DNA of 50,475 nt from Clostridia bacterium (lineage in GTDB: Bacteria > Bacillota > Clostridia > Oscillospirales > Acutalibacteraceae). Below, one piece after another: positions 16,502-50,475 of this stretch (position 1 is the stretch's first letter; the number at the start of each line of letters is the position of its first letter). The notes under the pieces were generated by a model that was not told the origin of the DNA, did no database searches, and saw only the letters and a program-made list of their open reading frames with translations. The position numbers and the translations under genes are program-made. The DNA lies in the NCBI GenBank assembly GCA_900767015.1, contig CAAFXQ010000261.1:1-50475 (forward strand), read 5' to 3'.

Positions 16502-16537
16502 AAAGCATCACCCGGTTGTCGGGTGATGCTTTGTTTT
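16502..16537 (+). terminator. Second, strong plus-strand hairpin terminator with no obvious gene upstream
   Basis: 13-bp stem AAAGCATCACCCG (16502..16514) / CGGGTGATGCTTT (16520..16532), followed by GTTTT. Confidence 0.55.
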
Positions 16538-16539
16538 CC

Positions 16540-16580
16540 GTAAAAAGAAACACAGGGCTGTTGCAAGAAGCAACAGCCCT
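16540..16580 (-). terminator. Terminator of the giant gene
   Basis: 11-bp stem AGGGCTGTTGC / GCAACAGCCCT (16554..16580). On the minus strand it is followed by GTGTTTCTTTTT. It lies 20 nt after the stop at 16601. Confidence 0.75.
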
Positions 16581-16600
16581 ATTGTTATTGGGATTGGCTC

Positions 16601-19600
16601 TTACTTGAAGACTGAGAAGATCTTCTGGAAGAATGCCTTGATCTTAGCAAGAAGCTTCTGGAACCAGTTGAGTGTCTTTTCACCTTCGTCAACAGCGTCA
16701 TGGTACTGATCGTGGTCACCGATGGTGTCGTTCCATGTGCCGGTGATTTCTTCCATTACCTGAGCGATGCTGCCGTAGATACAGGTGTCATTCGAACCGA
16801 GTGCGTCGAAGATTTCCTGATAGATCTTCTGGATCTTGTTGATGTCGCCGCTGAATGCTGCGTCAACCTGAATGGCAATTCCGAGAGCCTGGAAGAGAGC
16901 TGCGACGATGATGTCGGGTACCTCATACTTCGAGCAGGTATCGAACATCTTGTCGATGCCGTAGGCTACGGTCTGCTTTGCACCGCTCTGGAGCATGAAT
17001 ACATCTGCGAGCCAGTTGACGAGTGCTTCACGGTTGTGAGCATCACCGAACATCTCAAGAGCCCAGGTGATAACAAGTGTCAGCGTGTCACCCTTATCGG
17101 ATACGATGAAGGTCTGCGTCGACTTGTTGGCCCAACCGTCATACTTGCCGGTGCCGTAATCGTTGATGTACGGGAACGGATCAGTCGGTGTGGTGAAGGA
17201 GTTTGCAGAGTACGAACGTGAGGTTGCAACTTCCTTCGTTGAGGTGCCGCCCTCCTGAGCAAGCTTGTAGAAGTCGATTTCAGGAATCTTGAAGTCATAC
17301 TTCTGACCGAGTACCTGAATGTTGAAGCCGATGTTGTGGAGAAGCTTAGAAACATTGAGCATGCTTACGAAGTCCATGTTATAAGCTCTGCCGACAAGTT
17401 CAAGGATTGAGAATACAGGTGCTACGATATTTCTTACGGCAAGGTATACGCCTTCGTTGGAGATGAAGTACGCTACGTTCGGAAGTATTGTTGTAAGCGT
17501 ATCGACAGGTCTGTCGAGAAGTCTTTCAGCAAATACGCCGATCTTGGTAAGGATATAACCGATTACCTGCGTGTGATCCTTTTCACAAAGAGCCTTGTAC
17601 TCGTTGTAAGTAAGAACCTCTTCAGCGGTGAGGCCGAAGGCTTCGAGAATCGGGATAATACCGTAGTCGTAGCCGTTGCCGCCGCCGATCTTGACGATGT
17701 CAAGAATGTTGAGTGCTTTGCCTTCGCCCATGAGGAGAAGTTCAAGTACGGAGTTGAGCGGAGTCAGAACGTCGGTAAGAACTCTCAGGAAGCCCTGGAT
17801 GTCGCCGTCCTTGATGCCCCAGTCGGTGCCAGCGAAGGAGCCGACGTCAGCCCATGTTCCGTCTTCCTTGGCTGCCGCCGCTTCAAGAAGCTTAGCGCCG
17901 TTGTTCAGGAATACGTTGCCGGCCTGATACTTGGAGGTATCGGTGTAGTAATCGTAGTTGTCGATGAACTTAGCGTAGTAGCCCTGAACGGTGAAGTCAA
18001 GGTCAGTTTCTTCGGTGCTCATGCTCTTAACAACGTTAAGAATATTTGCTACCGTCGAGCCGCCGAGAAGCGGTACGAGCTTATCAAGAAGAAGGTTGAT
18101 TGTTGCATTGTTGATGTACTTCTGACCGAGCAGGCCCTTGAGTGAACCGAAGTCAGTCTTGCCGAGAATCTTCATGATCAGATCATCAAGGTTGTTGGCG
18201 ATGATGTCTGCATTGGCTTCTGTCAGCATGATGTACGTCGAGTAATCGAACTTCTTGGTCTTGATGGATCTGTTCTGTACGGGGATGTAGGAAACGTCTC
18301 CGCCGCCGATGAGATCAACGATAATATCGATAAGCTTGGTCGGATCCTTAATGATTTCCTCAATCAGCGAATCAATCGGTTCACCGAAGCCGTCAGGCTT
18401 GCCGAGGATTTCAAGAAGCTTCTCGTAGTTCTCCTGCGTGAGGATAAGCTTAACGAGGGTTACGAAGGTGTCTGCCGGATCTCCGACAACGTTCTGATAG
18501 TCAGCGCCGTTGTAGATATCGTACTTCGTGCTCATGGAGGAGCCGGTCATGTCGATAAACTTGTCGCCGTCGGTGTTAGCTGCTGCGGTTGCCGCAAGCT
18601 TGAGCCAGTCAAGCTCGAGGGTGATGCCGAGCGGCTTGCCGTTAATGGCGATACCGGCAAGTACATTGTTGAGAAGTACTGCAAGGTCGCTGCCCTTAAC
18701 GGTGATCTGTACGCCTGCGTCAACGCCCGGATGTGCCTTGCCGATGTAGGTTTCTGCGATCGACTTGTCAGTACCGATGTTGCCGAGGTTTACGTTGATA
18801 GCGATCGGGAAGATCGGGTCAACAGCTTCGAGAAGGTTGTTTACAGGAGCGATGAGGTTCTGAACGATCGTTTCAAGGTTGTCGTTGCCGATTACATAGC
18901 AGAGGTTTGCAAGAATCGGAAGAACGTTTGCGATCGGTTTGTCGAGAATCTCGTCTACCTTTGCGAAGACAGCGTCAAGGATGTACTTGAGGGTGCTGCC
19001 GTGGTTTGCTGCAACGTAGGCTTCATATTCAGCCTGAGTCTTGGCGCTGATGCCGAGAAGCTCAAGAACCGGAATGACTGCGTAGTTGTAGCCGTTGCCG
19101 CCGATAACGTTGATTTCGTCAAATGCCGTAATCTTGCTGCCGTTGTGTACGCCGGTCTTTTCGAAGGCTGCTCTGTCTGTGCCGCCCATCAAGAGGAGAG
19201 CCAGAACACCGTCGAGCGGGAGAAGCATATCACAGACAAGGTTTACAAGGTCTGCGGTTGAGGTGATGCCCCAATCGAAGGCTGTTGCAGTTCTTGTAAC
19301 GGTTCCGTCTTCAGCGGTGGTTTCTTCACTGTGTGCAAGCCATACTTCGTTCCAGGTCTTGGCTGTGCCGATGTAAGCGGCAAGCTTCGAGCCGAACTTG
19401 GTATTTGTGAAGGCCTGCGGGTTGATGTCAAGGTCAGTCAGGTTTGTAAGCTGATGTACATAACCGATGACCTGATCAATTGTTTCAGCCGGAAGTCCCG
19501 AGAGAAGCTTCGCAATCGAGGAGACAAGGAGGTTCGCAATGTCGTCCTTAACGAACAGCGGATAAACGATGTCCTTAAGGCTCGAGTTGCTGCCGTCGCC

Positions 19601-22600
19601 GATGAAGCCGAGAACAACCGGGATAATGGAGTCAAGGTTCATGAGAGCTTCGTTGAGCTGCTCGTGAGACTTAGCGCTTGAATAGGTTACTTCGATCTTT
19701 TCGAGCTGCGGCTGGTTGTAAGCCTTATACTCTACAAGATACTTCTTCAGAAGCTTAACGAGAATCTTGGCAACGTCTTCGCTCTTTCCGTCAAGCGAGA
19801 GAATGATATCTCCGGCTGTGGAGGTTGTGTCGAGGTTCAGCGTTGTGCAAAGGATCTTCAGGAAGTCTTTGGTGAGAACCGTATCAAGTACGTACAGCAA
19901 GGTGTCGCCGTTTTCAACGTGCCACAGGGTGACGTCATCGTCAACATTCAGTGCACCTGTCGGAGCGTCAATTCTGACTGCCGCCTTGGCAAGCTCTTCG
20001 AAGAAGTTGGTCGGGAGAGCCTTGATGACGTATACGGTTTCGCCGGTCTCGCTGTCCTTGATTTCAATCTTGCTGAGAAGATCATTGATAAGGTTGATGA
20101 GGTTTTCGCCCTTGTTGCCTGCGATGCCGATGATGTCGCTCAGTCCCATACCGATGAAGCCCTTCAGAAGGCCGTCGATCTGATCTCTTGAGATGACGCC
20201 ATCGAGTGCGTCGAGGATACCGAGTACAGGAGCCGCAAGGTTCTGGATTGCAATTTCGACGTCGTTGTTAGCGATGAAGAAGCTCAGGTTGCCGACAACC
20301 GTAAGGATCGTCGAGAACGGAGCCGCACATACTTTGTCAACGAGTGCGAATACATAATCGAGAACGTTTTCAACTGCCTGATTTGCGGTAGCCGCATCCT
20401 TCTTGGCTACGCCGAGATCCTTAAGGCCGAGGCCTGTGATGATCAGCGGTACAAGTGCCGACTCGTAAGCGTTGCCGCCCTTGAGGCTGAGACTTGTGGA
20501 TTCATCAACGCTGATCTTGAGATCCTTACCGGTGAGCAGGAAGGCCAGTACGCTTTCAAGCGGAGTAAGGAGATCGAGAACGGTGCTTACGAATGCATCC
20601 TTGCTGCCGACTCCGGTGAATACCGGATCGATCTTGACGATTGCGTCGCCGTTTTCGTCAACTTTGCCTGTCTCGTGGCTGTGAGCCTTGAGAACGTCTG
20701 CCCATGTTACGCCTGCTTCTGTGTCAGCCGGAGTAACGGTTACATAAGCGATAAGCTGTGCGTTGCCTGTTGCCGCTGCGAAAGCAGTCGGGGCAAGGTT
20801 TACGCCAAGAAGTTTGTTCAGCGTATTCGCAAGGTCTGCGGTCAGGAAGCCGGCGAGAGCCTTGACAAGTGCGCTTGTGATGGTTGCCATCATATCGTCG
20901 GTGAAGAGCATCGAGCCGAGGAGATAATCTACGATGTCTGCAAGGTCTGCGTCTGCCTTACCTTCGATAGCCTTTGCAATCTTTTCAAGGAGCGTCCACT
21001 CTGCTTCATCCTTTGAGGTGTCTGCAAGCATGGTGATCACTACCGGAGCTGCCTTGTTGAGTACCTTGTCGAGGCTTACGATTGCATCGTCAAGACCGTC
21101 GATGTTGTTGAAGTCAACAGTGCCGAGGAACTTGTAGATGTACGGAAGAATGGTCACATCGTAGGAGCCTGTCAAAATCAGGACAACGGTTGCAACAAGG
21201 TTCTTGATTGCGTTCGGGTCATTGAGAATGTCGTTAATGATATTCTTGATGGTTTCGTCAAGGGTTACATCCTTCAGAAGTCCCTCAACGAGGTTCTTGA
21301 TGTTTTCGCTGTTTTCCGCCGTGAGAGCAGTATCAAGAAGTGTTACCAGCGTATCAGCCGGGTCACCGGTGATATTCTCGAGGTCATCGCCGTCTTCACA
21401 AACAGGATACTTCGTATAGTCCTGCTTGGTGTCGATGGTGATGATATTGCCGGCACCATCCTTCTTAGCCATCTTTGCGGCAAGAGCGTTCCAGTCGAGG
21501 TCGAGTGAAAGCTTAATCTCAGTGCCGTTGATGTTAAGCGAACCGATTGCCTTATTGATGAAGTCAGCCAGTGCTTCACCGGAAACATTGATGCTGATTC
21601 CGTCGGGGATACCGTCGTGAGCGACGCCGATGTAGGTATCAACAATCTTTGCGGCCGCAAGGTCGATGCGGATTGCGATCGGATATACATCGTCGATCTC
21701 ATCGATAAGGGTGTTAACCGGAGCAAGAAGGTTTTCAGCGATTGTGTTGATGCCGTCAGAGCCGATGAAGTAGAAGAGGTTGGCAAGTCTTGAAAGCAGT
21801 TCGTTTACAGGTGTTGCGAGGATTTCGTCAACCTCTGTGAAGAGAACTTCAAGGATGTACTTGAGTGACGAACCGTCAGTTCTTACTCTCGATTCATACT
21901 GAACCTGCGTAAGCGGGTCAGCACCGAAGGCTTCAAGAAGCGGAAGTACTGCGTAGTTGTAGCCGTAGCCGCCGTTGATTCTGATGTCAGCTCTTCTCTC
22001 TACTTCCGGATCCTCAATGGCTATGATCTGTCTACCGCAAAGGAGAACCTGGAAGACAACATCGAGCGGAGCGAGAAGATCACAGGCGAAGTTTGCAAGG
22101 TCTTCCTTCGTGGAGATCTTCCAATCGAAGGTGCTGTGCATCGTCTTGTTGGCGGTTGCTTCTACGAGGGTTACGGCAACTTCGGCTGTATCCTTGTTGT
22201 TGTCAACGTCAGCCGTCAAAAGGTCAGCCTTGTCGCTGTAATAGTACTCAGTTTTGTCTGAACCGTCTTCAGCGGTTACCGTGTATGAATACTTGTAGGT
22301 CTTAACCTGTGTGACTTCGACGTCAGCGGTCGTGCTGTTGTTGTCAACGTCAGCCATGGTCAGTCCGTCAAGCGTACTGTAATAGGTTGCAGCCTTACCG
22401 TTTGCGTCAGTGTAGGTGTATACATACTTCGTGTATGTCTTTTCAACGTCTTTCCATGTGACTTTTGCAAGTTCTGCATCGGAAATGCTTCCGTCGCCGT
22501 CAGCGTCGGTGGCCGCAGCCGTGATGAAGTTCTTCAGCTGTGAGCCGAACGTGTCGTTTGCGAATACCGACGGGGCAAGACTACTGATACCAAGGTTGGT

Positions 22601-37600: not shown

Positions 37601-40600
37601 AATGCCCCACGACCAGTTCGGCGCATCCTCGGTGTTGTGTTTAGCGCTGAGCTTGTAGGTGACAGCATCTTCGCCTTCGCCGACAGTATATACCTTAAGC
37701 TGATCGTACTTGAGTGAAACCGTTTGTTCAGCGCCGTCTTTGTCCGTATAGGTATAAACGTACTTGTCGCCGTCCATGGTACGGGTGTAGCCGGACGAGA
37801 GCATCGTCTTCGAGTATACCGGCGTTTCGGAAACAAGCTTTCCGTCTGCGTCATACTCTTTTTCTGTCTTGTCGACAAGGTTACCGGCTTCGTCCTTAAC
37901 CTGAACAACAGCATACTTCGGCTTGCCGTCGACAAGAATGATTTCGTTGTTTTCGTCGAAGGCATAAGCAAGCACAGCGTGATTGTCATAAATCGCCGCC
38001 CAGGTAAGCTCGGTTCTATTACCGCCTTCATATACGTATATTCTGCCGGTCTTAGTATCTTTTTCGATTCGATAATTGCCGGTGCTGTCCTTATCAAAGC
38101 CGTAAAGCATATAAGAAGCAAACTGTGTCAGAGTTGTGCCGTCCGCTTTGTAGAGATACTTAGCGGTCGAAACGTCGAAGCCGGCAGACTTGAGAATGGA
38201 AATAACCATCTCGGTCGTCTTGGAGTCGCTGCTGCCGAAGATTTTGACAAACAGATTGCCGATGGCGTTCATGATGTCGTCTGTCAGGAGGTTTTCGCTG
38301 GCAACAGACTGAATGAAGGACCACAGACCTTCTCCGTTTGTGAAGTCATAGTCGATCGGAAGATTCTTGATGACGCCTTCCTCAAGAAGGGCAGCAAGTA
38401 CGTCGGGAACGGCCTTTTGAATGACATAATCGATGTTGTCAATGGCCTGTTCCGTACCGTCTTTTGTAAACTTATCTTTTGTGGCTTCCCAATCGTAGCC
38501 GCTGTGTTCGATTCCGTACTCTTCCTTGGCGGCTTCTGCGATTGCGGCGTCAGCACTGTTGAGAAGATTGTAGAAGTAAGCGTTGCCGTCGTCCGGCGTG
38601 TAGTCGGTAAGAAGGTCGATCAGGATACCGGTTACGATATCAACACGAACCGCACCGTTGCCGTTTTCAAGAATGGCATTCAGATTGTGAGCAATGTTTT
38701 CAACAATCTTTTCAATTCTTTCCTGTGCTTCAACGTCCTCAGCGTCAACGATATCTTTTTCATTGTTGATACCGGCGAGAACTGTGTCAGCGATGAACTG
38801 AACAAGCTCCGGTGACATGAGGTTTCTCATGAGCGTGATGAGAAGCTGACCGGCGGTCGAGTCAAATTTTGTGAAGGTTGTGACACCGTTGCCTCTCTTG
38901 GTCGAAGCGTTGACATCGGCCTTTGTCGCTGAATCGGCGGCAATCTTACCGAAGTCGATCATCTTCATGTTGACCGTTGCATTTTCGTCACCCATGAACC
39001 TTGAAAGCATTGTGTTAAGCAAGGTTTCAAAGTCAAGGTACTGTTCAAGAAGTGCGTTGATGTCAAGGTTTACAACTCTTGAAAGAATCGGATCTGCGAT
39101 TTCAAGAAGCTTGAGAACCGGCGCAACCAGGTTAAGAACAGCAACAGAAAGGTTGTTCGTTGTCTTGGCTGAACCGTCGGCTTTCTTTTCGCCTGTCGGA
39201 TACTGATACAGGAAGTATGCAATATTCGGAAGCTTTTCAAAGAGCGTTGCAATCGGAGCTTTGAGAAGTCCACGATCGGCTTCGGTTGCACCGATGAGCA
39301 GGTCAATCAGAGCGTTGAGAACGAGCGTAAGCGGTGAGTTTGTCATCGTTGCCATTCTCTTACCGTTTTTATTGATTGTTGTGCTACCGTAAACATACTG
39401 GTTAAATTCGGCTTGCGTCTTGCAGGCAGAATCAAGACCAAACGCTTCAAGAAGCGGTACGATTGCTCTTGAATAGCCCTCGTTGCCCTGAATAGTCAGT
39501 TCATCCATAAGGGTGATGTCTTCACCGGTCAGGATAACGGCAAGCAGGGGATTGAGCGGCGTCAGAAGGTCGCTTACGAAATCCGTGAAGTTTTCGAAAG
39601 ACTTTCTTGTATTGGCATAGCTATCAAAGCCTGCAACGGTGAACCAGGTGTTGCCTTCGTGAACACCGATGTCAGCCCATGTCATGTTTGCAAGCTCTGT
39701 TTTTGCAAGATCTACGCTGATGCCGCCGGCTGCACCGTATTTATGTCTGCCGGCCTGATAGTTGAGCCATCTTGCGATATTATCGTTTTTGCCTGCTCCG
39801 CTTAATGCGCTGTTATAGAAGCCGAGCGGAGTAAGGTCAATGCCGAATTCGGCAAGGGCGGCGGCAAGCTTATTGACAATGCTTGTCGGGTCGCCGAGCA
39901 GACCGCCGAGAAGTCCTTTATCTTCTTTGCCGGTTTCCGGATCCACTTCGTGCGTACCGACAAGAAGCTTCATGAGCATTGCAACAAGATCATTCGAGAT
40001 AAAGAGACTGCCGAGAACCTGCGTAACGGTTGTCAGTTCGCCGTTTTTAACCTGCTGGATAACCTTGTCAAAGCCAAGCTTCGTGAGGGTTTCACCGGCA
40101 GCGGTACCTTCGGTAAGGTCGCCGAGAAGGGAAACGATCATCGGAACGAGAGAAGTCAGAACCTTATCGAAGTTCTCAACAGCAAGGTCAGCCTTTGCCA
40201 TCTTCTGCTCATAGGTTGTGTTCGGGTTTGCGGGGTCGCCGCTGTCAGCCAGCGATTCGTTGAGGTAATTGCCAAGCTGGAATTTGGTTGTATTATCGGG
40301 GTTCAGATACGAAACGCCGCTGTCGTCGACAAAGGTGCCGTCCTTAACGGGATCTTTGTATGCGTCAAAGTCGATGTTGTAATCGTTGAGCAAGCAGATA
40401 AGAACCGCCATAAGGCTGTCAGCCTGGCCGTTGGCAATCTGAAGGATCGTGTCGGTCGTACTTTTTTCACTGTCAGCAGTGTCAAGCATACCTCTTAAGA
40501 GCGGAGCGATTTCGTAAATAACACCGTCGTCAAAGAGCCATCTGAAGAGGTTGAGCAGGGTATCGCCCGGGTCGGTTTTCGCATGATAGGTTGTCATTGT

Positions 40601-43600
40601 GCCGTTGAATCCGGCAAATGTTGTTTTTTGTATTGTGCTTGTTGAAAGGAATCTGTTAACAGGGAAGTGAAGCGGAACGGCTTTTGTCTGATTGTTTGCA
40701 ACCTTTGCTCCGTCCCAAATCCAGTCAATAAGCGTATCACCAAACATGTTATACAGGGTCTGCGTCAGCAAACCGATATTTGTAAAGTAATACTTTGTGC
40801 CTGTGCCGTTGTTCTGATAATATGCGGGCTCTGTTTTAGAAACCGTTTTGTTTCCGTCAGCATCAGTTGTAACCTGCATCAAAACATTATCAAAGGTGGT
40901 CGGCTTCGATGTAGTTGATGTCGCTTTAATTAAAAGCGCAAGCAAACCGTCTGTGCCGTTGCTGAGAGCATCAACAAGACCCAATTTTGTCAAGGTGGAT
41001 TCAAGCAAATCCCAAACCTTGAGTTCTATAACATCAATTCCGCCTAAAAGATCAACAATAATTTTAGCTGATACATTTTTTAGTTTCGGAATAATCTGGT
41101 CGTATTCGAGTGCAGCAAGGAGGTTCGGCAAAATTTCAAGAATTGTCTGAACCGGTTTGACAAACAGAACATTATCAAGCCAATAGGTGATCGGTTCAAG
41201 AAGATATTGGAATAAAGTAACACCGTTGTTTGTCAAAACTACCAAGTCGCCTTTTTCTTCGGTTTGACAAGCAGCATCAATATCTGCTCTTGAATGGAAG
41301 CCGTTCGGATTCGAGCTCGAACGTTCATTGATACCCAAAAGTTTATAAAGAGGTACAAACAATCGATCATAAAGGGAGTCACCGGTGTTTTGAACGTTAA
41401 TTGTAACATTGAGACTACCAACCGCACCGGTTACTGACTTTGTTTGTCCGGTTACTAATGCTGCAAGGGGAGAACCGAGACCAGAGAAAACAGCGGCGAG
41501 AGAATGATACAAGTCATCAGGATTTTTTATGTGCCAGCATTCTTCATTACTCGTTATTTTTGTCCAATCAACATCATCCCAATATGTGTAACTACCTTTT
41601 ATTGGGATAAAAGCAATCGTGGCCATTTTTTCACTTTTTGTAGCTCCTACGGTGGCGCAAGCTTGAATTATTTGAGAATAATTATAGTTCGAGCCCATGA
41701 ACTGACCATCGAAAAAGTGTCCCCATGTTACATCGGTAGTCTTGTCACTTTGATTTCCAAAGTTAGTGTTCCAGAAGAAATGGTGAGGCTGATTCGGAAT
41801 AGCAGTTTTCGCAACTGAAGGAACAGTTCTTGGAAGATATACATTACCTACTCCGACATTTATATCTGCACTACTTCCATATGTACTTTCTGTCATAAGG
41901 GCATTGCCAAGCATCGGATAAATCGTCTGGAACAACATTGTCTGAATATTGCCGGAATAGAGAAGCTTCAGAATCGTGTTGATAAGGAATTCACGAAGAT
42001 TGTTAATCTTAGAACCTGCCGTGTGTTTTGTGCCGTTTGCTTCTGTGTATGCATATTTCCATGTACCAAGCCCCTCTCCGTTTTGCTCCATAAGCTTTCC
42101 GAGAAGAGTACCAAGGTCATCCGAAATAATCATGTTATCGAAATCGGCAACAGCGGCATCCATAAGATTTCTAACCTGTGTAACGTCTACGTCTCCGATT
42201 TTAAGACCGATTTTGTTGACAGCGTCTTTGATAATGGTTACATCAAGCTTATTAACAGCCGTCAGCCAGCCCCAGTTGTAATAATTGTTACCGCTCGAGC
42301 TTGAAACATCTTTAAAGAGATACTGAAGAATCTTCCTATCATGTGTTGCGCCGTTATTATTGTCCGAAATTGCGTCGGATTTCAGCTTTCCAAGATTTGT
42401 CTTGAAATCAACGGCAGAGTTATAGTAACCTGCGATTGTATTGAAACGTGTGTTGAGGTTGTCAACTGACGGCATACCGTCAGCCGGAACGTAAGCGGGC
42501 GCACTGTCAAGGTACATACCGAGAGTTGCAATGTCGGTTTCGATAGCATTATAACTGTCTATAATCGCTTCGAAGTTGTAGTATACAACTTTGTTGCCGC
42601 CTTCTTTATAGTAGGTTTCAACTCTCGTAACCTGGTCAACGATTCTCTGCGCAACAGCACCTTTAATCGTATTGATATAGGTTGTATACTCATCGATGCC
42701 GTCCGGATAGACTGCGGCATAAACAGCCGCATTGTTTGTATCCTTGCTGAGGGCAACAGCCTTATTGTAAAGTGTTCTGAATTCTTCGGAATACGCCGTC
42801 AACTGCTTATAGGTCATTCCGTTGAATACCGTTGTCTTGATGAGGTTATCCATCTTGGCTTTGTTTTCGAAATGCTGATAACCGTTAACATCAATCTTAA
42901 CCGTGTCCATTTTCGCAAGAAGCTGGTTATACAGGGCTTCCGTTATACGGTTTCCGGTTGCGGAGAAAGACTCCTTAACGTCCTCGAATGTACCGTATCC
43001 GAGAACGAACGTGTCAATGTTTTCTTTCAGAACCGTTGCTCTGTTGATGAAGTCCTTGGCTTTGGCTTCATCTGCACTGCCCGGCCATGCTGCGGTTGCG
43101 TCTTCACTCTCATGGTCATAAGTGGGTACTTCTTCCGCAAGGAGCGCAGCAAGCTCATCGGCATATACTTTAGCATATGCTCTTGCAACGTCAGCTTTCA
43201 AGGTTGCCATGTATTTTGTTACGGTTACATTGTAATAGTCAGCACCGCCGTCAAAATGCGGAAGAATCAGAGCAAAGATATTTTCACCTTTATAGTTGGT
43301 CTGATTATGTAAATTGTTATCAATGGCAACAACGCTTTTATAGAAAGCGAGAAGTTCATCGGCCGTATAAGCGGAATAATCCGTTGCCATTTTCTCGTCA
43401 AACTGCTTTTTATAGCTGGAAGCGTAAGCGTTGTTAATAGCGTCAAGAAGACCGTTGTTGATCCAGTCTTCGGTTTCGGCGTAAGTCTTTCCGACTCTCT
43501 CTGCGACATAGTGATCCCAAAGCTCATCGGGTTCTGCTGACTGAGAAAGAATTGCCGCCGTCTGGAACGCAGACAAAACGTTTGCGCACGACTTATCGCC

Positions 43601-44383
43601 GACAACAAGCTCCATAATCTGATCAACCGTCATGGAGGCAAGATCAAGATTGAACCATGTGATAAATGCGTCCGGAGCGACACAGTCGGTCAAGGCTGCC
43701 TTGATTGCGGCAACCGTCGTATCTTCTTCGGGGTTCAGAACCGTTGTCGAAGTAAAGGAAATCGTGTCGGGCGTAATGGCAAAAACGCTGCCCTTCGTTG
43801 TAATCGTAAACTTCAACTGAGCGGTATAATATGTACGGTCGGTTTCGATATCCTCAATCTTGTCGTAAGCAAGGATATCATAGCCCGTACCGATATTGAG
43901 GGTACGAGAGAGACTACTTCCCGTAAATCCGCCGGTTTCAGTAGTGCCGAACGTGAAGTAGCTCAAAACTTTCTGCACGTCGGCCTGCGTCGCACCGGTC
44001 GAGCCGTCCGCACTGGTAAGACCGCCACTTACCATGTCGCTTACGGCCTTATCAACAATGTCCTTATAGGTGTTGACAGTACCGGTTGTGGACGATGTGA
44101 CCGCCTTTGCATAAGCGGAGAACGCTTTTGCGACGTTATACCATCCCGAATGATAGGTATCGACCGCAACCGCATAGTTGGTGCCGCTTGTCAGCGACGG
44201 GACTCGAGAGGTATCTCCGGAATTGATTGCTTCCATCAAGCCGTCGTAGTCCATGTTGATTTGCGTGTACAGGTTTCTCAGCTGTGATTCACCGGCGCCA
44301 AGAACGCTGAAGCACACAGAAACACTGGATACTATCATCATGATAGCTAACACGCAACTCAATGCTTTCTTTCCAAGTTTCAT
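16601..44383 (-). CDS. Giant (9,260-aa, ~1 MDa) secreted modular repeat protein of unknown function
   Basis: Uninterrupted 27,783-nt ORF. AAGGAGGA lies 7 nt upstream of the ATG. The N-terminus MKLGKKALSCVLAIMMIVSSVSVCFSVLGAG/ES is a Sec-type signal. A terminator lies directly downstream. By eye I saw no LPXTG, SLH, RTX nonapeptides, NRPS/PKS core motifs or Ig/cadherin-type adhesin repeats. Confidence 0.9.
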   Translation of the reverse strand: MKLGKKALSCVLAIMMIVSSVSVCFSVLGAGESQLRNLYTQINMDYDGLMEAINSGDTSRVPSLTSGTNYAVAVDTYHSGWYNVAKAFSAYAKAVTSSTTGTVNTYKDIVDKAVSDMVSGGLTSADGSTGATQADVQKVLSYFTFGTTETGGFTGSSLSRTLNIGTGYDILAYDKIEDIETDRTYYTAQLKFTITTKGSVFAITPDTISFTSTTVLNPEEDTTVAAIKAALTDCVAPDAFITWFNLDLASMTVDQIMELVVGDKSCANVLSAFQTAAILSQSAEPDELWDHYVAERVGKTYAETEDWINNGLLDAINNAYASSYKKQFDEKMATDYSAYTADELLAFYKSVVAIDNNLHNQTNYKGENIFALILPHFDGGADYYNVTVTKYMATLKADVARAYAKVYADELAALLAEEVPTYDHESEDATAAWPGSADEAKAKDFINRATVLKENIDTFVLGYGTFEDVKESFSATGNRITEALYNQLLAKMDTVKIDVNGYQHFENKAKMDNLIKTTVFNGMTYKQLTAYSEEFRTLYNKAVALSKDTNNAAVYAAVYPDGIDEYTTYINTIKGAVAQRIVDQVTRVETYYKEGGNKVVYYNFEAIIDSYNAIETDIATLGMYLDSAPAYVPADGMPSVDNLNTRFNTIAGYYNSAVDFKTNLGKLKSDAISDNNNGATHDRKILQYLFKDVSSSSGNNYYNWGWLTAVNKLDVTIIKDAVNKIGLKIGDVDVTQVRNLMDAAVADFDNMIISDDLGTLLGKLMEQNGEGLGTWKYAYTEANGTKHTAGSKINNLREFLINTILKLLYSGNIQTMLFQTIYPMLGNALMTESTYGSSADINVGVGNVYLPRTVPSVAKTAIPNQPHHFFWNTNFGNQSDKTTDVTWGHFFDGQFMGSNYNYSQIIQACATVGATKSEKMATIAFIPIKGSYTYWDDVDWTKITSNEECWHIKNPDDLYHSLAAVFSGLGSPLAALVTGQTKSVTGAVGSLNVTINVQNTGDSLYDRLFVPLYKLLGINERSSSNPNGFHSRADIDAACQTEEKGDLVVLTNNGVTLFQYLLEPITYWLDNVLFVKPVQTILEILPNLLAALEYDQIIPKLKNVSAKIIVDLLGGIDVIELKVWDLLESTLTKLGLVDALSNGTDGLLALLIKATSTTSKPTTFDNVLMQVTTDADGNKTVSKTEPAYYQNNGTGTKYYFTNIGLLTQTLYNMFGDTLIDWIWDGAKVANNQTKAVPLHFPVNRFLSTSTIQKTTFAGFNGTMTTYHAKTDPGDTLLNLFRWLFDDGVIYEIAPLLRGMLDTADSEKSTTDTILQIANGQADSLMAVLICLLNDYNIDFDAYKDPVKDGTFVDDSGVSYLNPDNTTKFQLGNYLNESLADSGDPANPNTTYEQKMAKADLAVENFDKVLTSLVPMIVSLLGDLTEGTAAGETLTKLGFDKVIQQVKNGELTTVTQVLGSLFISNDLVAMLMKLLVGTHEVDPETGKEDKGLLGGLLGDPTSIVNKLAAALAEFGIDLTPLGFYNSALSGAGKNDNIARWLNYQAGRHKYGAAGGISVDLAKTELANMTWADIGVHEGNTWFTVAGFDSYANTRKSFENFTDFVSDLLTPLNPLLAVILTGEDITLMDELTIQGNEGYSRAIVPLLEAFGLDSACKTQAEFNQYVYGSTTINKNGKRMATMTNSPLTLVLNALIDLLIGATEADRGLLKAPIATLFEKLPNIAYFLYQYPTGEKKADGSAKTTNNLSVAVLNLVAPVLKLLEIADPILSRVVNLDINALLEQYLDFETLLNTMLSRFMGDENATVNMKMIDFGKIAADSATKADVNASTKRGNGVTTFTKFDSTAGQLLITLMRNLMSPELVQFIADTVLAGINNEKDIVDAEDVEAQERIEKIVENIAHNLNAILENGNGAVRVDIVTGILIDLLTDYTPDDGNAYFYNLLNSADAAIAEAAKEEYGIEHSGYDWEATKDKFTKDGTEQAIDNIDYVIQKAVPDVLAALLEEGVIKNLPIDYDFTNGEGLWSFIQSVASENLLTDDIMNAIGNLFVKIFGSSDSKTTEMVISILKSAGFDVSTAKYLYKADGTTLTQFASYMLYGFDKDSTGNYRIEKDTKTGRIYVYEGGNRTELTWAAIYDNHAVLAYAFDENNEIILVDGKPKYAVVQVKDEAGNLVDKTEKEYDADGKLVSETPVYSKTMLSSGYTRTMDGDKYVYTYTDKDGAEQTVSLKYDQLKVYTVGEGEDAVTYKLSAKHNTEDAPNWSWGIDACTGDTTQTIFTAKKDQLLNDLWELLTPFAPLFSMLIAGDGLKLFDGGLNIEGNKGYENVLLPLLNAFGLNGVLEYIQNTTDPVTGKTIYETMNEGKPAGQKIPTQVMTADEYYDLVYDDAGKLDVDGMGKAVKTFCNYVFYFLEILVTCPVSSLSTALPTLAYFIYGDGLTTLVSNVLIPLTTFTNRLKEIINLDLNAIASGLVDVLATGSWESFQEALQSYVEIDPDTGEIIVHEVAVKSFTDSLLRYIGSMEFDLSSVLASKDTVITDENRNDYKYSIVLFIDKDTEVEAKKLAASENEEDVTLARKMRGDALKNFFKSIAALGDPKTDSNLVAIDNNGQVKVSRAELLMFLLNFLFENTTIKQVLGNLLGYNLTDENGDDAELLDEIITNVFQNPEALVEVIVGLFTSYTVKGQKEITLVNIESETHREFFEDAGYASHEEVLKAIEAGQDVTELSRVKTSAAIDNLDRLIGTILNLFKAELTKQDDPATTDVDETGLFAKLGLTADDDITLKNAVDALLKGYLYKDENINKIVSLLIGLLGDKKNAQIVNIVVSIAEGAGYSLTPQTYAKNVPALKDIIGTSKKWSQVAASHMEYVYEYKDGDKTVTVYSPDENKTNIDGHAVTPVYVQATDKDGNALWEDEAKTKPVYTDVQKQAVQIHATWNINTRDQFVDMVWSLVQPLSTIFEVLLTGGNLSIYEKANIRGLEGYKGVILPLIKALGIDHLYQLDENGKETTNLYYTNYYATYEAFEKAVYGEDLVRGNDDDNLELLLKSIVDAIFALVDSVCDRPVSTIATILPYLARFLESKGIDTILENLLAPVTTITEKISVIYNIDLLGTVKSLLKNLIKNANADAGVATTSYEPEAQTVASAAAAAYVLDIVEDNEASSEDVMANVLSEDIMALADEGAETQTEEPEMTFLDIIWQVIDGVTFTINGNEIALRDIVGDTLFIDLASCAWLPENGSYVAKVEINDDRRSGQITRTPATEYTVDRETVLLKVLDWVVFNAGVRDTVGGLLNIDFDSLTTIQKEDDNYLLTVLLYSVFDDAEAVERLVIDLLSWYEVEYRAQRTKTDYSEVAQADPIDYENIGIDKAQLEKLPADLDSLVNAILPAVMTMLPEGALGSLKLEGTSVEEILHNLVVGLLADSSTTVDGETVVTTGNMTKLVAMLVKLLGGNETLVTVIPMLKEIVPGLDLSLEYFKASSPAFATYFADCETWEDAYEAHKVKVKFDETTAEKDSEGKIIVPAQDKDGFIYDTSKPVYELDAEGKQIPATTTSTIVKIGDTTYYTTAGDGTGDVIEGAYVVETDTDGNPVFEYQYDVELKNANSFGIKEYQDVLDLLADILTPLAKVLRLMLTEDNLVLLDGITITAGDGYDRFIVPLFEVFGIENIMDKYEFAELSDNDFTAKVISYIDAIISKIAFSPIQTIVDALPQLFFFIYSEGLAQSVEQLVAPIITLVDLVNDVTAQKINVDGREDALVALDIYALITDLINTKVMDALGLDHVSDIYGLVNVFLTAEGLQNLLKKVIAKYEEDKGVTVDLGDFKIETLFKDIIGKCCTITDVETVRYFGATVTSSNTRVVKGVLANRADTLIQIVSETVLSGEFLKGILAALGVTLNENVETIINAVTGDNRYVIFKVLLKYFNDYDVETMALEYLSFKKADYAYTDYVEGTTLTQRKLRRAIKKFDKALLAAIPNLVPLLESNDTFAAILDKIGGYHKQSLKDLVHDILNAYAFNNETMTSLIGMLIGLLGGENLSGTLATLIPLLDNVVGLDISPEAFTHTSSDALNEFISAAVDAAPATDPVLDENGKPVLDEEGNPTTKPHTATWADVVSYYTAYGYTYTVNGADGEETTETVYLRNKDATTYTVGSETYPLEQIVNYAYTYTVTESGKDVVKTITFTNSDETVYKVTSGETTTEYTLTRDAENDARETKVGGEAYDWGIDGDYNARKNAFVSILAGLINPLEPILNFVLRSDDIKILTDEHGENAVLTLKGNNGYENAIYPLLQALAVDQFAGGTLVDPSTYNGARGTATTLTALTDAIFVVIDTLCEKPIEFILTLLPSLSYFISCNGVQFFLENLLSPIFAIFDLAEPVVGPILDNLIGPLVSPYLEPYMPADAGTPYERDVTDPETGETKKETYKVYTVKEITGIAGENGSNLVTIINKLVSSFLVTSKEDGEQYETLQVLDNSTFESYAQHTIKINESNNNSKWYYWYNDPVTGKSVKVASTDYDLATMGAVTRERYVVENFSVDIADSLVFLLDTVLSEDILGVIADMLNADLNDEGNAISVILNNLINGNFNGLVVSDIVTKLFEGYEVTYAELNGKLITPDHSAYDELTADQKNKIENVPSQLDTIIDNAIPTLLPILKTLLAPKTDEATGETEKPSVIYTFLCEYLDSLTESDTASLRGIVDALLSGKLYTDEMTSMIARLIPTVCNIQIVNLVFTVFTYGDYTLDPQGYISLIKAHYGAADKRTIAMAEVIGDCKTWQEVVDRNTAPEDGKLPTLDFGVKDLATFKAALSVILYPLFPILQVATQGKTLSIFSHTAESYVKVDEEDVSPTDDDKIIGNGYIRLQGTNGYEIAILPLVDTLQGADKHPGEIKTQAEFNQIKTVEELLDYLFKLVFFLVDDLVADPVAFLSDNLASLVYYIANDGIFKLVDTLIGAINAVAAVIDPIYYEGGIRLHFNVLKLEDTGSEKGLLSTINEALAKANIDIRITTDMLFDLAGKIGEYKVIDSLRSNANIALIDDEGRYVDKDGNVLTEEQLAAAGRKITTIVGSHKYIFTGLIDFVLSDDILGKLVTSDMTASLPEIVQQIINNVTGEDAVSNIVDVFIKLLNKYVVEYKAIEDPAEALQKIVIDYSKRTVTQADTLNAINNADDLIGAILGIFEFGSLEGLLNQYLYTDNIVNLILNALVGLIANLDDKTWDTINTVLGYVKDIINVDIDITPQGYAKLSKELKAFIGESTTWKQVADTYTEYEYSYLTGEKDAEGNDITATYYGAKDLLKANIGDKEVELTPVYQYTYLTGEKDTDGKDKTATYNGAPGLTTATIGDKEYELKDGKPITKLNINCEWGVSAAVGKDAKAEALVDAVTALLKPFDPILKLLLSGGTYNFAANGTYGDSLGAFGEINIMGGSGYNYAIIPLLEALGVQNVYTQAEYDLQLETGESSLAYILNAILKTLNDNLDEPLNYLLGFIANLAYTVSKNGLTTIISNLIAPISELIKAVQGVIPVSVTLNLMGLINNTEILQVYLGDQVAQHNAEVGVNIDLNAATLEELVRAAIQKFIPALDLDFNTARLAAQAVAVGEGGTITLNPSKVNSNWDICIGTPGGNITGNAADTLIALAEMILTPENIDAVLKLLKVDLTKLPQELQDIINNAIKDPQSLVDAIIKLLNGRYDVETIVMIYKYLGAEDYDYRDDGVWKSSTTRAIGKLDKIVGNAVPKVIKILATQEKPIQLIADIYKALGDNATIENIVDWALKKYAFNDGMANTLVGLLIGVLGGLDAKTMDLIQTLVDQIVEIDLTPAGVAAISNANGGKIAGLIATVTASDTEKGLTWADVANAYTKYAYTYVTGQNAEGQDITETYYGAKGLQKETIDGKEYSLTPDLDESENQKTKVILDYVWNVTDKESFFGVVYELTAIFEDLLDFLLRGENIRVLIDGFVLKGANTYDNAIVPLGKALGISLKAGDQIATSNDMIREVVDGIFGLVDKLEKAPLSTILELVGSASFFIANNGIETSLNSLLSPITSLLSIVENIVTMDDINAIMKNYLKISIEDITTIAGEHGEKLVALINEAVAGLNIVGPDGTTPVTKLLDADFFEELSKYGIDVKDTSEVDKPTNEWSVDKTDVLMYLLQTVFTDDILDFICKAAGIDTNEQLASVVKSLAGKEDEIVDIIVMLVTEYSIKYSKIRQEDITKIPVSMKDTRITDTNIESALTAIDGIIPTVLGLVKGNGATLESIINDLLKKADLGNLVMNLLVPVLAKLDNGSVDIAEILGYVKEVTNIDLDITPAAFTNGKFGSQLANFIGDAKTWSDVQAKYTKYAYTYIDADGKEQSYYGAEGETKYIVGEGEDAKTYDLKPVYVKETDAEGNEVETDKQVTAVKSDFDWKLNGLEDIVNLVCDMLLPFDIIFRVILQGDQIIVLQDPDENDIRIYGGNGYNYAIIPLLEAFGIDPLSQADYDASIDSIYSGSSIKYILDEIVTMVEDLLNAPVQTLLEKLANIFYFVGSEGINGVVSNLVAPINVLIDEIDDVYPLAISVDLNMLGVDNSKILVTYLGKEHPGLKAGLSVNVASTDLADLINSAIGSIKIGDSVINLSLNLDWNEIASKMARTQDPAEKDTLGAELVKNPSKQVYNIGEVTNKDEVDDYVNIEGDVVDTFITLLQTILTADNTEGIAALIKSLIPASLDSTIAQIIYDVLNDPDAIENLIGVVVLVLCGQYNVDDSKDFFYAFLGALDFSDYSKMNDLNTAIEKFDNMIGRAVPTVVKILGATAKEDSFLKKLADGVGEDATLESIVNWALTEYAFNNDTFSKLINTIVKALAGALTADLTKTIDNLLGIDLAPKAFAAATGNSKVINYVGDSATWNDVLALRADKISDTEYKFKPYDWAANDKDSFVGLVLDLLKPLEPILSFVLMGTPLEFEIEGIQLKGGRAFEKAINPLIRALGIETNSAATANEAIGNVVDYVFELVDMICEAPLTTILSVLSNLSFFIANDNLQPLIENLAAPILGIVDLASSIISRDQLDGILKGLIGMGLTDIIEIGNNGGANLIGFINELIKGIEIKDENDKVIYTINLLPEDFFVELSKYAIDVQDVVHADANIGTETNDWDVNTGNALMYILATVLDENFLKTIFTKVGVNTSEDLGATLLTLADKEYDLADVIIMLLNDYSITYKRIQQADLGTATAPYYGALDHKNTTDAIKALDPLLVSVLGMLGVGDLKSLIDGLISDADLGNLLMNLLVPVLAKLNLEDILSYVNELTNLGISSLAPSVFANDTFGSQLKNFITAAATDADGDGSISDAELAKVTWKDVEKTYTKYVYTYTDANGKAATYYSTLDGLTMADVDNNSTTADVEVTQVKTYKYSYTVTAEDGSDKTEYYYSDKADLLTADVDNNKDTAEVAVTLVEATANKTMHSTFDWKISTKEDLANFACDLLAPLDVVFQVLLCGRQIIAIEDPEVERRADIRINGGYGYNYAVLPLLEAFGADPLTQVQYESRVRTDGSSLKYILEVLFTEVDEILATPVNELLSRLANLFYFIGSDGINTIAENLLAPVNTLIDEIDDVYPIAIRIDLAAAKIVDTYIGVAHDGIPDGISINVSGEALADFINKAIGSLNINGTEIKLSLDLDWNALAAKMAKKDGAGNIITIDTKQDYTKYPVCEDGDDLENITGDPADTLVTLLDTALTAENSENIKNLVEGLLKDVTLDETIKNIINDILNDPNAIKNLVATVVLILTGSYDVTILPYIYKFLGTVDFNNIDGLDDAIVSLDKVLNKAAPVVITMLADTSKDEAEWTLLEKIAKAIEGKADADLADIVDYLLGSMLFTDDMMATITSALVKALAGFLTADLANTLNKLLGVNLAPTAFAAATGNAQLIAYVTVTPADTEAGVTWADVLKAHSHETGKVDENGDAIVKIDPVFTGVGSKDAFVSTVLDLLTPLESVLAFLLTGKDLKISVDESTSLSLKGGNAYESALVPLIITGLGLKDLGVAKKDAATANQAVENVLDYVFALVDKVCAAPFSTILTVVGNLSFFIANNDVEIAIQNLAAPVLGILDALDGVISRDQIDGLLKGFIGMGLSDIIGIAGNKGENLINLINDLLSKIEIKDSETGETVYVIKALPTNFFEELAKAAVRIDAPTGALNVDDDVTLWHVENGDTLLYVLDTVLTKDFLKILCTTLNLDTTSTAGDIILSLDGKSEDVAKILVKLLKKYLVEYKAYNQPQLEKIEVTYSSAKSHEQLNEALMNLDSIIPVVLGFIGDGSNSSLKDIVYPLFVKDDIANLLVSSIAKLLSGLPAETIDQVIGYVHQLTNLTDLDINPQAFTNTKFGSKLAAYIGTAKTWNEVWLAHSEETTAEDGTVTRTATAFDWGITSTADLVNLVCDMLLPLDGVLALLLMGGTDRAAFEKTGVHNGSKITAFDEINVIGGNGYNYAVIPVLELLGISAKTQAEYEAYVAANHGSTLKYILDAVFAKVDEILDKPIANVLPILANLCYVIGNDNLETIVQNLIAPVNNLLEAVDPIFPIAINVNLGNIGTDKSIAETYIGKAHPGVDAGVQITVKGSDLAVLLNNVLAGIAINGKPLGITLELDWLKLAATAAANTDGDKFIDMTGSSMSTKYDIYNGADYQNVVGDPADTFVTLVKLILTQENYEKLLEILGKPDGFGEPIDSLIEEIIKDPTKLIDIIVDLIGGGDVSYIPVQNRSIKTKKFDYSTYIMLTEANADIIANNLDDLIMKILGKTDFGSLKGLLGQKYINNATINLLLDKLVPLLGGSTVANILNVVKSMSTEETDLDFTVQGYYAKFIDNYDYYTDTSKYQAGNVFLNNGAKLLEAAAAKEDGTWADVGSFAGTDWGIKDGDIQGFLRVLTDVLTPLNSVLELLLMGEGKALNILDIVKIGGGNGYDYGIIPILEAFGLTAEEVLTYNEYKALCEKDHTQVIGYILTKIGVFAERLLDRPVDTLTTILPNVAYFISNEGVYLAVRNIVAPVFSILELVGRAYNMDFVSMLNVSKLLHNIGFNIQVLGQKYDFKIPEIDFYKLAQEGGTSTKEVATSRSYSANSFTTPTDPFPYINDYGTGKYDGWANKSTQTFIVSDKGDTLTLVITWALEMFGDAHNREALVNWLADVFMLQSGAKQTVAYGIDKMFDTCSKYEVPDIIVAALFQALGIAIQVDAAFSGDINKIQKIYQEIFDALGSNDTCIYGSIAQVMEEITGTWNDTIGDHDQYHDAVDEGEKTLNWFQKLLAKIKAFFQKIFSVFK
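16900..29060 (-). repeat. ~3-kb two-module (A+B) super-repeat, about four copies, in the 3' half of the giant gene
   Basis: A-type cores (GG[NSY]GYNYA[IV][IL]P[LV]LE) lie at ~28135, 25055, 21945 and 19075. B-type cores (G[AG][NR][TA][YF][DE].A[IL].PL) lie at ~26530, 23570 and 20450. Spacing is 2.9-3.1 kb. Some stretches are ~85-90% identical at the DNA level, e.g. 22630-22690 vs 25590-25640 (LGNL[LV]MNLLVPVLAKL). Confidence 0.75.
16900..41400 (-). repeat. 15 divergent tandem coding modules (~1.35-2.05 kb each) making up most of the giant gene
   Basis: The core G-x-x-G-Y-x-x-A-[IVL]-x-P-L-[LI]-x-A-[FL]-G is encoded at ~41325-41385, 39428-39490, 37382-37445, 35411-35472, 33410-33472, 31530-31592, 29780-29842, 28105-28165, 26501-26560, 25027-25085, 23541-23600, 21915-21975, 20425-20480, 19048-19103 and 17632-17689. 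A boundary motif [LIV][LIV]xxYx[VI]x[YF] is encoded near 40410, 38620, 36380, 34420, 32660, 30630, 29060, 27385, 25860, 24240, 22890, 21180, 19750 and 18310. Confidence 0.85.
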
Positions 44384-44527
44384 GAAAGTTTCCTCCTTAG
44401 AATGAAGTATATATTACAAATAGGTCGTCCCTATAGAATACCGAAAGTCAGCCGAACCGGAAAACCGGGCGGCAGAAATTTCAAAAAGGGTACAATTCAC
44501 CCCATAAAGACACCTATAACTATAGGT

Positions 44528-44556
44528 AGTATAACATTCCGTTGTCAGCATTTCAA
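44528..44556 (-). promoter_or_regulatory. Probable promoter of the giant gene (extended -10)
   Basis: On the minus strand: TTGAAA (44551..44556), 17 nt, TGtTATACT (-10 at 44528..44533). This implies a ~135-nt 5' UTR. Confidence 0.5.
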
Positions 44557-50451: not shown

Positions 50452-50475
50452 AGATCGGAAGAGCGTCGTGTAGGG
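50452..50475. other. Illumina TruSeq adapter remnant (non-biological)
   Basis: AGATCGGAAGAGCGTCGTGTAGGG equals the start of the standard read-2 adapter-trimming sequence (reverse complement of ...CCCTACACGACGCTCTTCCGATCT of the universal adapter). Confidence 0.95.

Follow-up and report, generated by a model that had tools for sequence, protein, structure and literature searches.

The window examined here is the whole 50,475-nt stretch of contig CAAFXQ010000261.1 (assembly GCA_900767015.1, a Clostridia bacterium from the Acutalibacteraceae, order Oscillospirales), and its subject of interest is a single very large gene. This gene is one open reading frame (ORF) on the minus strand, at 16601..44383, which starts with ATG, runs for 9,260 codons and ends with TAA. 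Its product, called the giant below, has a mass of 1,009,331 Da, an isoelectric point of 4.33 and a net charge of about -639; Leu, Ala, Asp, Thr, Ile and Val are abundant, with Cys at 0.41% and Arg at 1.4%. The giant is a repeat-built protein with a signal-peptide-like N-terminus, 15 copies of a module that has no match among known families and a short, strongly conserved C-terminal helix; we read it as a putative surface fibre tethered to the membrane. The features of the gene, in the direction of transcription and with positions in amino acids (aa) of the product, are as follows.

44528..44556, minus strand: sigma-70-like promoter candidate, TTGAAA-17 nt (TG-extended)-TATACT, 10 of 12 consensus positions (consensus match only)
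44392..44398, minus strand: Shine-Dalgarno sequence AAGGAGG, 8 nt 5' of the ATG
44291..44383, minus strand: signal-peptide-like N-terminus, aa 1-31, MKLGKKALSCVLAIMMIVSSVSVCFSVLGAG, Kyte-Doolittle hydropathy 2.52 over 19 aa
41477..44290, minus strand: lineage-specific N-terminal head, aa 32-969 (~940 aa), free of internal repeats (no self-matches)
39596..41476, minus strand: module M0, aa 970-1596, the most diverged copy (module profile i-Evalue 2.8e-28, profile positions 15-464)
28307..39595, minus strand: modules M1-M6, aa 1597-5359, 566-684 aa each (i-Evalues 1e-114 to 1e-144; 20-30% mutual identity)
17804..28306, minus strand: modules M7-M13, aa 5360-8860, 448-546 aa each (from the module profile and self-comparison)
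16679..17803, minus strand: terminal module M14, aa 8861-9235, core and middle without tail and beta insert (profile positions 2-364, i-Evalue 4.4e-84)
16604..16678, minus strand: C-terminal amphipathic Phe/Lys helix, aa 9236-9260, KTLNWFQKLLAKIKAFFQKIFSVFK, a proposed membrane tether or sorting element
16552..16582, minus strand: terminator-like hairpin of 13 bp (7 G-C pairs) followed by a T-run (consensus match only)

A chance origin of such a long frame is excluded, since the other two frames across the same interval hold 325 and 725 stops. The promoter-like site implies a 5' leader of ~135-140 nt (44384-44527, minus strand); no Rfam family was found anywhere in the window, this leader included. 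The terminator-like hairpin begins 19 nt after the stop codon. The first-pass annotation, made from the sequence alone, had proposed at these positions a 9,260-codon gene for a protein of ~1 MDa with a strong Shine-Dalgarno sequence, a Sec signal peptide and a promoter candidate and terminator of its own. All of these were recovered: the gene on the minus strand, the promoter and terminator as consensus matches only, and the signal peptide in its general shape, as judged from hydropathy and by eye.

Modules were defined by chunked BLAST self-comparison and by a hidden Markov model (HMM) built from the copies. The 15 modules (400-684 aa each) fill aa 970-9235; 14 of them match the HMM with i-Evalues from 4e-84 to 1e-160 and the one diverged copy matches at 3e-28. 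Modules M1-M6 start at aa 1597, 2281, 2938, 3603, 4218 and 4784, and M7-M13 at aa 5360, 5906, 6393, 6893, 7427, 7929 and 8377. Toward the C-terminus module length drops from ~680 to ~450 aa. Mutual identity among M1-M14 is 18-48%, and from M7 onwards two subtypes alternate: M7/9/11/13 (32-48% identity within the subtype) and M8/10/12 (36-42%), with 22-28% between the two. The alternation suggests that the M7-M13 array probably grew through duplication of a two-module unit. The modular build that the first-pass annotation had described is thus refined to 15 defined units.

Each module has a core of ~160-240 aa with the pattern L.PL…L..LL.G…I.I.GG.GY..AI.PLLEALG…P…L…L.N..YFI..G…NL.AP, followed by a helical middle and a tail, both less conserved, and then by a variable Tyr/Thr-rich, beta-like insert that precedes the next core and has a (D)W(G)I-type motif at its end. 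If the insert stretch is counted from the conserved TW.DV motif up to where the module ends, it takes 18 to ~120 aa: fewer than 40 aa in M5, M9 and M11-M13, and 74 to ~120 aa in M1-M4, M6-M8 and M10, with those of M3, M4, M6 and M10 on the long side. An insert in every module had been noted at first sight; inserts are indeed present, but their length varies. The invariant positions of the module are Pro, Gly, Tyr, Trp and one Asp. Together with predicted helix bundles with hairpins (below) and the lack of a match to any catalytic family, this set of residues points to a structural rather than an enzymatic role.

Neither Pfam nor NCBIfam has a family that matches the head (aa 32-969). In a comparison with the 150 listed representatives of the family and a few word-search matches, conservation of the head was confined to the closest giants: P0022 (38-54% identity), P0020 and P0102.

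Scans of both halves of the giant with Pfam-A, NCBIfam and PHROGs returned nothing at E<=0.01. In the Pfam scan of the whole giant at E<=0.1 there were no Ebh-type FIVAR, GA or DUF1542 repeats, and Pfam detected no tandem RCC1 repeats (PF00415) either. The motifs LPxTG (as LP.[TSA]G), HHxxxDG and DTACSS do not occur anywhere in the giant; the single GGxGxD string is a part of the module motif GGNGYD. Pfam, NCBIfam and the motif scan gave no RTX arrays, no cores of nonribosomal peptide synthetases or polyketide synthases, no Rhs/YD or FHA repeats and no toxin domains, and the families Gram_pos_anchor, SLH and CWB2 had no match in the giant. The hallmarks of bacterial giants that the first-pass annotation had listed as missing (the synthetase cores, RTX, Rhs/YD, FHA, LPXTG, SLH, toxin domains) are therefore also missing from these searches.

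At the level of structure, full-module and core profiles had no match among PDB sequences better than E=0.15. Two AlphaFold2 models were built. The model of M11+M12 (17 aligned rows) reached a mean predicted local distance difference test score (pLDDT) of 63 and a predicted template modelling score (pTM) of 0.44; the model of M13+M14 with the C-terminus, from an alignment of 35 rows including 28 homologous two-module proteins, reached a mean pLDDT of 70.4 and a pTM of 0.59, with the cores at 80-92. Both models have helix bundles broken by beta hairpins and small sheets. In Foldseek searches, where E<=1e-3 or a meaningful TM-score was taken as significant, the best matches of the two models in the PDB had E=0.16 and 0.53 (TM-score <=0.13), and one run against BFVD gave a best E of 0.11 (TM-score <=0.17). 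All matches were sub-threshold and generic (helical-repeat, membrane and tape-measure proteins). The module fold thus has no detectable similarity to folds in PDB or BFVD; this does not amount to proof of a new fold, because the models are of moderate confidence and multi-domain. With no confident match from profiles or structures, the earlier proposal of novelty stands.

An exhaustive HMM search with the core profile against 1.84 billion cluster representatives found a family of 676 representatives at E<=1e-3, with 364 of them at E<=1e-30. Among the matches listed, module copy number runs from 2 to 14 and length from 850 to 7,691 aa; none of these is as long as the giant of the window, which has 15 copies and 9,260 aa. 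Every representative that bears a name is called 'hypothetical protein'. Precomputed Pfam domains on the representatives were absent except for one CAP-domain fragment, our Pfam scans of 11 representatives were empty, and no description of this module family was found in the literature that could be searched. Word-index searches with the module profiles detected few relatives and no giants at all. The view of the giant as an undescribed candidate holds insofar as it belongs to no curated or described family; it is not an orphan, having 676 related cluster representatives and relatives that are widespread in Oscillospirales MAGs (metagenome-assembled genomes) from gut and rumen.

The genomic distribution was determined in a pattern scan of genome contigs (one genome per species, with a profile from 8 closer cores), which gave 338 confirmed matches; 58 loci were retained. 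All 58 come from gut or rumen MAGs, labelled as Acutalibacteraceae, Ruminococcus/Ruminococcaceae, Oscillospiraceae, 'uncultured Faecalibacterium', Eubacteriales or Clostridia. In nearly all of them the ORF occupies the whole 10-kb upstream flank and stops ~5.6 kb past the match; the genes at these loci therefore encode giant orthologues longer than 5,200 aa. No family match was found in 72,556 plasmid and 50,697 phage records. At least one MAG, RGIG4739, has two different giant paralogues (L009 and L021), nearest to different orthologue groups; in another, SUG439, loci L007 and L056 could be fragments of a single gene.

At the other end of the size range are two-module membrane proteins of Clostridia (P0002, P0005, P0007 and ~90 relatives; 850-1,100 aa), all annotated as hypothetical. 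They are true homologues of the giant, sharing with it a signal peptide and the module core motif (L.PL...L..LL.G...I.I.GG.GY..AI.PLLEALG ... P...L...LPN..YF; profile E 1e-58 to 1e-69). Unlike the giant, they end with a transmembrane helix and a Lys-rich tail, and neither the 940-aa head nor long Tyr/Thr inserts are present in them. The smallest members (~860 aa) consist of a signal peptide, a short tail-like segment, exactly two modules, a transmembrane helix and a basic tail; they sit among housekeeping genes and have no common partner. M14 is collinear with the second module of these 860-aa proteins. Copy number ranges from 2 to 15 across the family, which is what a fibre of tunable length would lead one to expect.

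Orthologues of the giant are collinear with it in many independent assemblies; for example, the giant at locus L056 is 92% identical over 1,575 aa. A comparison over a longer range is possible with locus L014, whose giant is collinear with that of the window at 67.5% identity over 5,100 aa and has the same flanking genes. Repeats at the DNA level within the giant gene are no longer than ~150 nt and 60-86% identical; being short and diverged, they make repeat-driven misassembly unlikely. We saw no sign of the assembly chimera that the first-pass annotation had named as a risk, and a chimera at this gene is unlikely. With 9,260 codons free of stops and collinear orthologues in many assemblies, this is a real gene that is under selection.

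The identity between the window and L014 is distributed unevenly. The flanking genes are nearly the same in the two genomes (EF-P 100%, a 140-aa ORF 97.6%, YceG 93%, ThiF 92%). Within the giant, the C-terminal ~1,900 aa (aa ~7390 onwards) are on a par with these flanks at 85-95% identity, and the stretch from aa ~4240 to ~7240 has only 46-70%, with the transition located as follows.

22186..23084, minus strand: divergence breakpoint relative to L014, aa ~7100-7400 (a fairly sharp change of identity; position approximate)

Among 13 close orthologue pairs, the C-terminal 400-aa block was the most conserved block in 8; a strong identity step was observed only in the pair of the window with L014 and, to a lesser degree, in the pair L009-L032. 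By these comparisons, the membrane-proximal end would be constrained and the distal part would evolve faster, a pattern that fits an exposed distal end. The distal part appears to have been replaced by recombination at least once. At locus L056, the C-terminus of the giant is 92% identical to that of the window although the flanks are only 85-87% identical, and EF-P and YceG were not found between the giant and ThiF. This incongruence, along with the reverse one at L014 (67.5% in the giant and 92-100% in the flanks), suggests that segments of the giant gene have been exchanged between lineages.

We consider now the two ends of the protein. The N-terminal stretch MKLGKKALSCVLAIMMIVSSVSVCFSVLGAG has a basic n-region, an h-region of ~20 residues and small residues near the likely cleavage site; it was assigned as a signal peptide by eye and from hydropathy, with the cleavage site being putative. 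The pattern KK.LS..LA..M..SS.SVCF opens most full-length members of the family. The transmembrane-type paralogues carry their Lys-rich tail after the membrane helix, which by the positive-inside rule places their modules outside the cell. Given a signal-like N-terminus kept across the family and these positive-inside tails, the bulk of the giant is probably extracellular as well.

The most conserved element of the giant is its C-terminal helix. The last 23 residues, LNWFQRLIKKIKEFFQKIFSIFK, are nearly invariant in ~55 orthologous giants with bodies only 40-60% identical, a degree of conservation by which we regard the C-terminus as functionally critical. The hydrophobic moment of KTLNWFQKLLAKIKAFFQKIFSVFK is 0.566, within the top 1% of the giant's own 18-mers. 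The maximum Kyte-Doolittle value over the last 60 aa is 0.79, too low for a membrane span. Two kinds of ending occur among 150 representatives. By a strict test, at least 92 have an amphipathic aromatic/basic helix (…NGFI.FFQKI..FFKNLF or, in the clade of the giant, LNWFQRLIKKIKEFFQKIFSIFK), with more identified by eye; at least 16 have a transmembrane helix that is followed by KKKK or a Lys-rich tail, and there are several more whose tails are longer. As judged from these sequences, the two are positional alternatives at the C-terminus; the simplest reading is that what they have in common is a need for the C-terminus to be membrane-attached, whether by spanning the bilayer or by lying on its outer surface. 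Tethering is also more likely than free secretion because the helix is so strongly conserved and the paralogues have a membrane helix at the same position. None of the curated families of sorting signals, TIGR01167 and PF00746 included, matched the C-terminus of the giant in Pfam and NCBIfam scans of C-terminal peptides. Two sub-threshold matches from these scans, to phiKZ_IP (E=0.001) and ApoC-I (E=0.044), were taken as noise. The early statement that the giant lacks an anchor was thus right for LPXTG and SLH, neither of which was found, and has to be amended for the conserved Phe/Lys helix, which, with the membrane helix in the paralogues, suggests a tether.

The giant gene is surrounded by genes of ordinary functions. 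Downstream lie a hyper-acidic 140-aa ORF, EF-P, YceG, ThiF, an alpha/beta hydrolase, TetR, ABC transporters and a LiaF-like gene; upstream lie RidA and a large surface protein with Listeria-Bacteroides repeats. Across the downstream flanks of the 58 loci there is no conserved partner gene and, in particular, no conserved gene dedicated to secretion or sorting. Having promoter- and terminator-like sites of its own and no conserved downstream partner in the 58 loci, the giant gene stands alone.

Two of the neighbours deserve comment. The 140-aa ORF (15800-16222, plus strand), located between EF-P and the terminator of the giant gene, encodes a hyper-acidic, Cys-rich protein (…DDDCDCCCDDDCDCDCDC…CPNCG…) with no Pfam match; its 97.6% conservation at the same position in L014 makes a genuine small protein likely, probably one of metal-binding or zinc-ribbon type. 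On its 3' side a second hairpin (16502-16532, plus strand) adjoins the terminator of the giant gene, whose hairpin (16582-16552, minus strand) can also be read as a plus-strand hairpin; the pair at 16502-16582, between convergent genes, is a bidirectional terminator region. The upstream ORF (45383-50475, minus strand) stays open to the window edge, so that it has at least 1,696 aa rather than 1,480. It encodes a surface protein with Listeria-Bacteroides repeats and CarboxypepD_reg, unrelated to the giant, and ends with GFWPTIFRFFHKIIKMLVG followed by a Cys-rich tail; this ending is aromatic/basic and amphipathic like the C-terminal helix of the giant. Such an ending on an unrelated neighbour hints at a portable retention or sorting signal.

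Several known systems can be compared with the giant. Ebh/GSSP of Staphylococcus aureus and Embp of S. epidermidis, giant helical surface proteins, likewise are ~1-MDa products of a single ~30-kb gene, with an N-terminal export signal and helix-rich repeat modules. The Ebh module measures ~126 aa, as against ~500 aa here. Further differences are the lack of any sequence or profile relation, the beta hairpins and Tyr/Thr-rich inserts of the giant's modules (with no Foldseek match), a C-terminus in the form of an amphipathic helix rather than a transmembrane one, and the different host lineage. Ebh/GSSP is a membrane-anchored, fibre-like protein of 1.1 MDa whose over-expression blocks clumping (PMC3868527), and an effect of Ebh on osmotic-stress tolerance is among the earlier reports cited in that paper. 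A predicted C-terminal membrane attachment and projection as a fibre (PMC3868527) would be points of likeness too, as proposed for the giant from its amphipathic helix and the paralogues with a transmembrane helix. The roles expected of Ebh and Embp, adhesion or steric shielding, serve as the model for the giant. Given the Ebh precedent, the giant is a new building block, not a new kind of system.

The second group is formed by giants of Clostridia themselves. The RCC1-type giants of Oscillospiraceae and other Clostridia giants are predicted to be extracellular, occur in Clostridia of the mammalian gut and consist of tandem repeats (West-Roberts et al. 2023, bioRxiv 10.1101/2023.11.21.568195), which are RCC1 beta-propellers or Listeria-Bacteroides, YG or dockerin repeats; the giant described here matches none of these Pfam families and is mainly helical. 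Further published giants of Clostridia are of S-layer/MBG type and are located on megaplasmids. Proteins anchored by LPXTG or by SLH/CWB2 share with it a signal peptide, repeats and a C-terminal retention element; they differ in the anchor motifs, which were not found in the giant, for which we propose retention via a helix at the membrane surface. Short C-terminal amphipathic helices that bind the membrane surface are known from the MinD/FtsA class, a functional rather than a homologous grouping; the helix of the giant (moment 0.566), if it does bind the membrane, would, unlike that of MinD, sit on the outer face.

Taken together, these data lead us to the model of a Sec-exported, megadalton surface fibre tethered to the membrane at its C-terminus, to which we assign a probability of roughly 0.55. 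The giant would be exported by Sec in a monoderm gut or rumen Clostridium of the Oscillospirales, and the amphipathic Phe/Lys helix at its C-terminus would hold the polypeptide to the outside of the cytoplasmic membrane. From there the 15 modules, alpha-helical for the most part, may extend through and past the wall as a long and very acidic fibre, with the 940-aa head and the distal modules as its exposed, fast-changing end. Its most likely role would be that of a surface spacer, a shield or an adhesive fibre for strain-specific contacts with particles, mucus, other cells or phages, as in Ebh. The data show the gene, its modular family, the conserved termini, the lack of known domains, the distribution and a conserved C-terminal end next to a divergent distal part. 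We infer export, tethering, the extended shape and the biological role from the sequence; for the function (spacer, shield, adhesin or phage-interaction surface) the argument is one of analogy and of the conservation pattern. The suggestion of the first-pass annotation, a giant scaffold or fibre outside the cell or in its envelope, holds up in this analysis, as do the gene call, the export signal and the lack of a curated family.

A number of points weigh against this model. The sharp mosaic is known from a single genome pair, and most other pairs show a mild gradient. A role as adhesin, spacer or shield is argued by analogy, with no ligand or binding domain identified; the extended shape is assumed, the structural models have moderate confidence (mean pLDDT 63 and 70), and the signal peptide was called by eye and hydropathy. 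Hydrophobic residues of the C-terminal helix also fall into an a/d heptad pattern (L1, F4, I8, I11, F15, I18, F22), so the helix could drive oligomerisation or binding of a partner instead of membrane binding.

The last point leads to the alternative that survives best, though we consider it unlikely: the giant could be a scaffold released into an extracellular matrix or biofilm, with the C-terminal helix acting as a coiled coil or as a recognition signal for secretion or sorting. The heptad placement of hydrophobic residues, a hydropathy too weak for spanning the membrane (0.79) and the lack of a wall-anchor motif all agree with release; the family members with a true transmembrane helix and Lys-rich tail at the same position do not, nor does the lack of any conserved downstream gene dedicated to secretion or sorting at the 58 loci.

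Somewhat less probable still is an element of envelope integrity or wall organization, a ruler or strut that lies within the wall or membrane zone. The Ebh-like organization would suit such a role, as PMC3868527 cites an envelope phenotype for Ebh; the gene also has housekeeping and envelope genes around it (YceG, LiaF-like, EF-P), and a net charge of about -639 could serve to bind cations or wall polymers. The fast, mosaic divergence of the distal part and the copy number of 2-15 are a better fit to an exposed surface, as in the tethered-fibre model.

We regard it as very improbable that the giant is a cytoplasmic protein with an N-terminal stretch that is no signal and a MinD/FtsA-like helix bound to the inner face of the membrane. 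The likeness to MinD and FtsA targeting helices serves as a lead only, while the basic n-region and ~20-residue h-region are conserved family-wide, the tails of the transmembrane-type paralogues place the modules outside, and the composition, low in Cys (0.41%) and Arg and high in Asp, Thr and Asn, is one typical of proteins that Firmicutes export.

A reading as a polymorphic toxin, a contact-dependent effector or a structural protein of a phage or mobile element is hardly tenable. The great size, the signal peptide and the presence of a variable region could be cited in its favour, as could the sub-threshold Foldseek matches to phage tail and tape-measure helices (E=0.11, TM-score <=0.17). 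Toxin, Rhs, RTX and FHA domains, however, did not appear in the Pfam, NCBIfam and motif scans; the C-terminus is the most conserved part of the protein, not the most variable; and there is neither an immunity-like gene nor any conserved neighbour. With no PHROGs family, no match in the plasmid and phage records and housekeeping genes on the flanks, we dropped the prophage, plasmid and toxin readings.

Finally, an assembly artefact or decaying pseudogene might be suspected because the window is seemingly metagenome-derived and the exact protein was not found in a collection of 15 billion sequences, but this has a negligible chance given a frame with zero stops in 9,260 codons (325-725 in the other frames), internal repeats that are short and diverged, and collinear orthologues in independent assemblies that keep the start and end motifs.

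Giant, repeat-built surface proteins of Gram-positive bacteria are a known kind; for the module, its apparent fold and the C-terminal retention element no counterpart is known. A more ambitious proposal, which we put forward as tentative and rather doubtful, is that these giants make up an undescribed class of megadalton surface fibres in abundant, mostly uncultured Oscillospirales of gut and rumen, with a new ~500-aa fold, a new and portable C-terminal Phe/Lys helix that holds them outside the membrane and also ends the unrelated neighbouring surface protein, and a distal end recombining between strains that sets strain-specific interactions with host mucus, dietary particles, nearby cells or phages. 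The helix is a candidate for a new membrane-retention signal of Gram-positive surface proteins. The module as defined here is ready to enter Pfam as a domain for an unannotated family with hundreds of sequence clusters. The hosts belong to the Oscillospirales (Acutalibacteraceae, Ruminococcaceae, Oscillospiraceae), which rank with the most common bacteria of gut and rumen and with those least often cultured; their surface contacts with host, diet and phages are little understood. A gene of ~28 kb would take up ~1% of a genome if a genome size of 2-3 Mb is assumed, and as a likely strain-variable surface determinant it may be of use in strain typing and in studies of phage receptors and colonisation.

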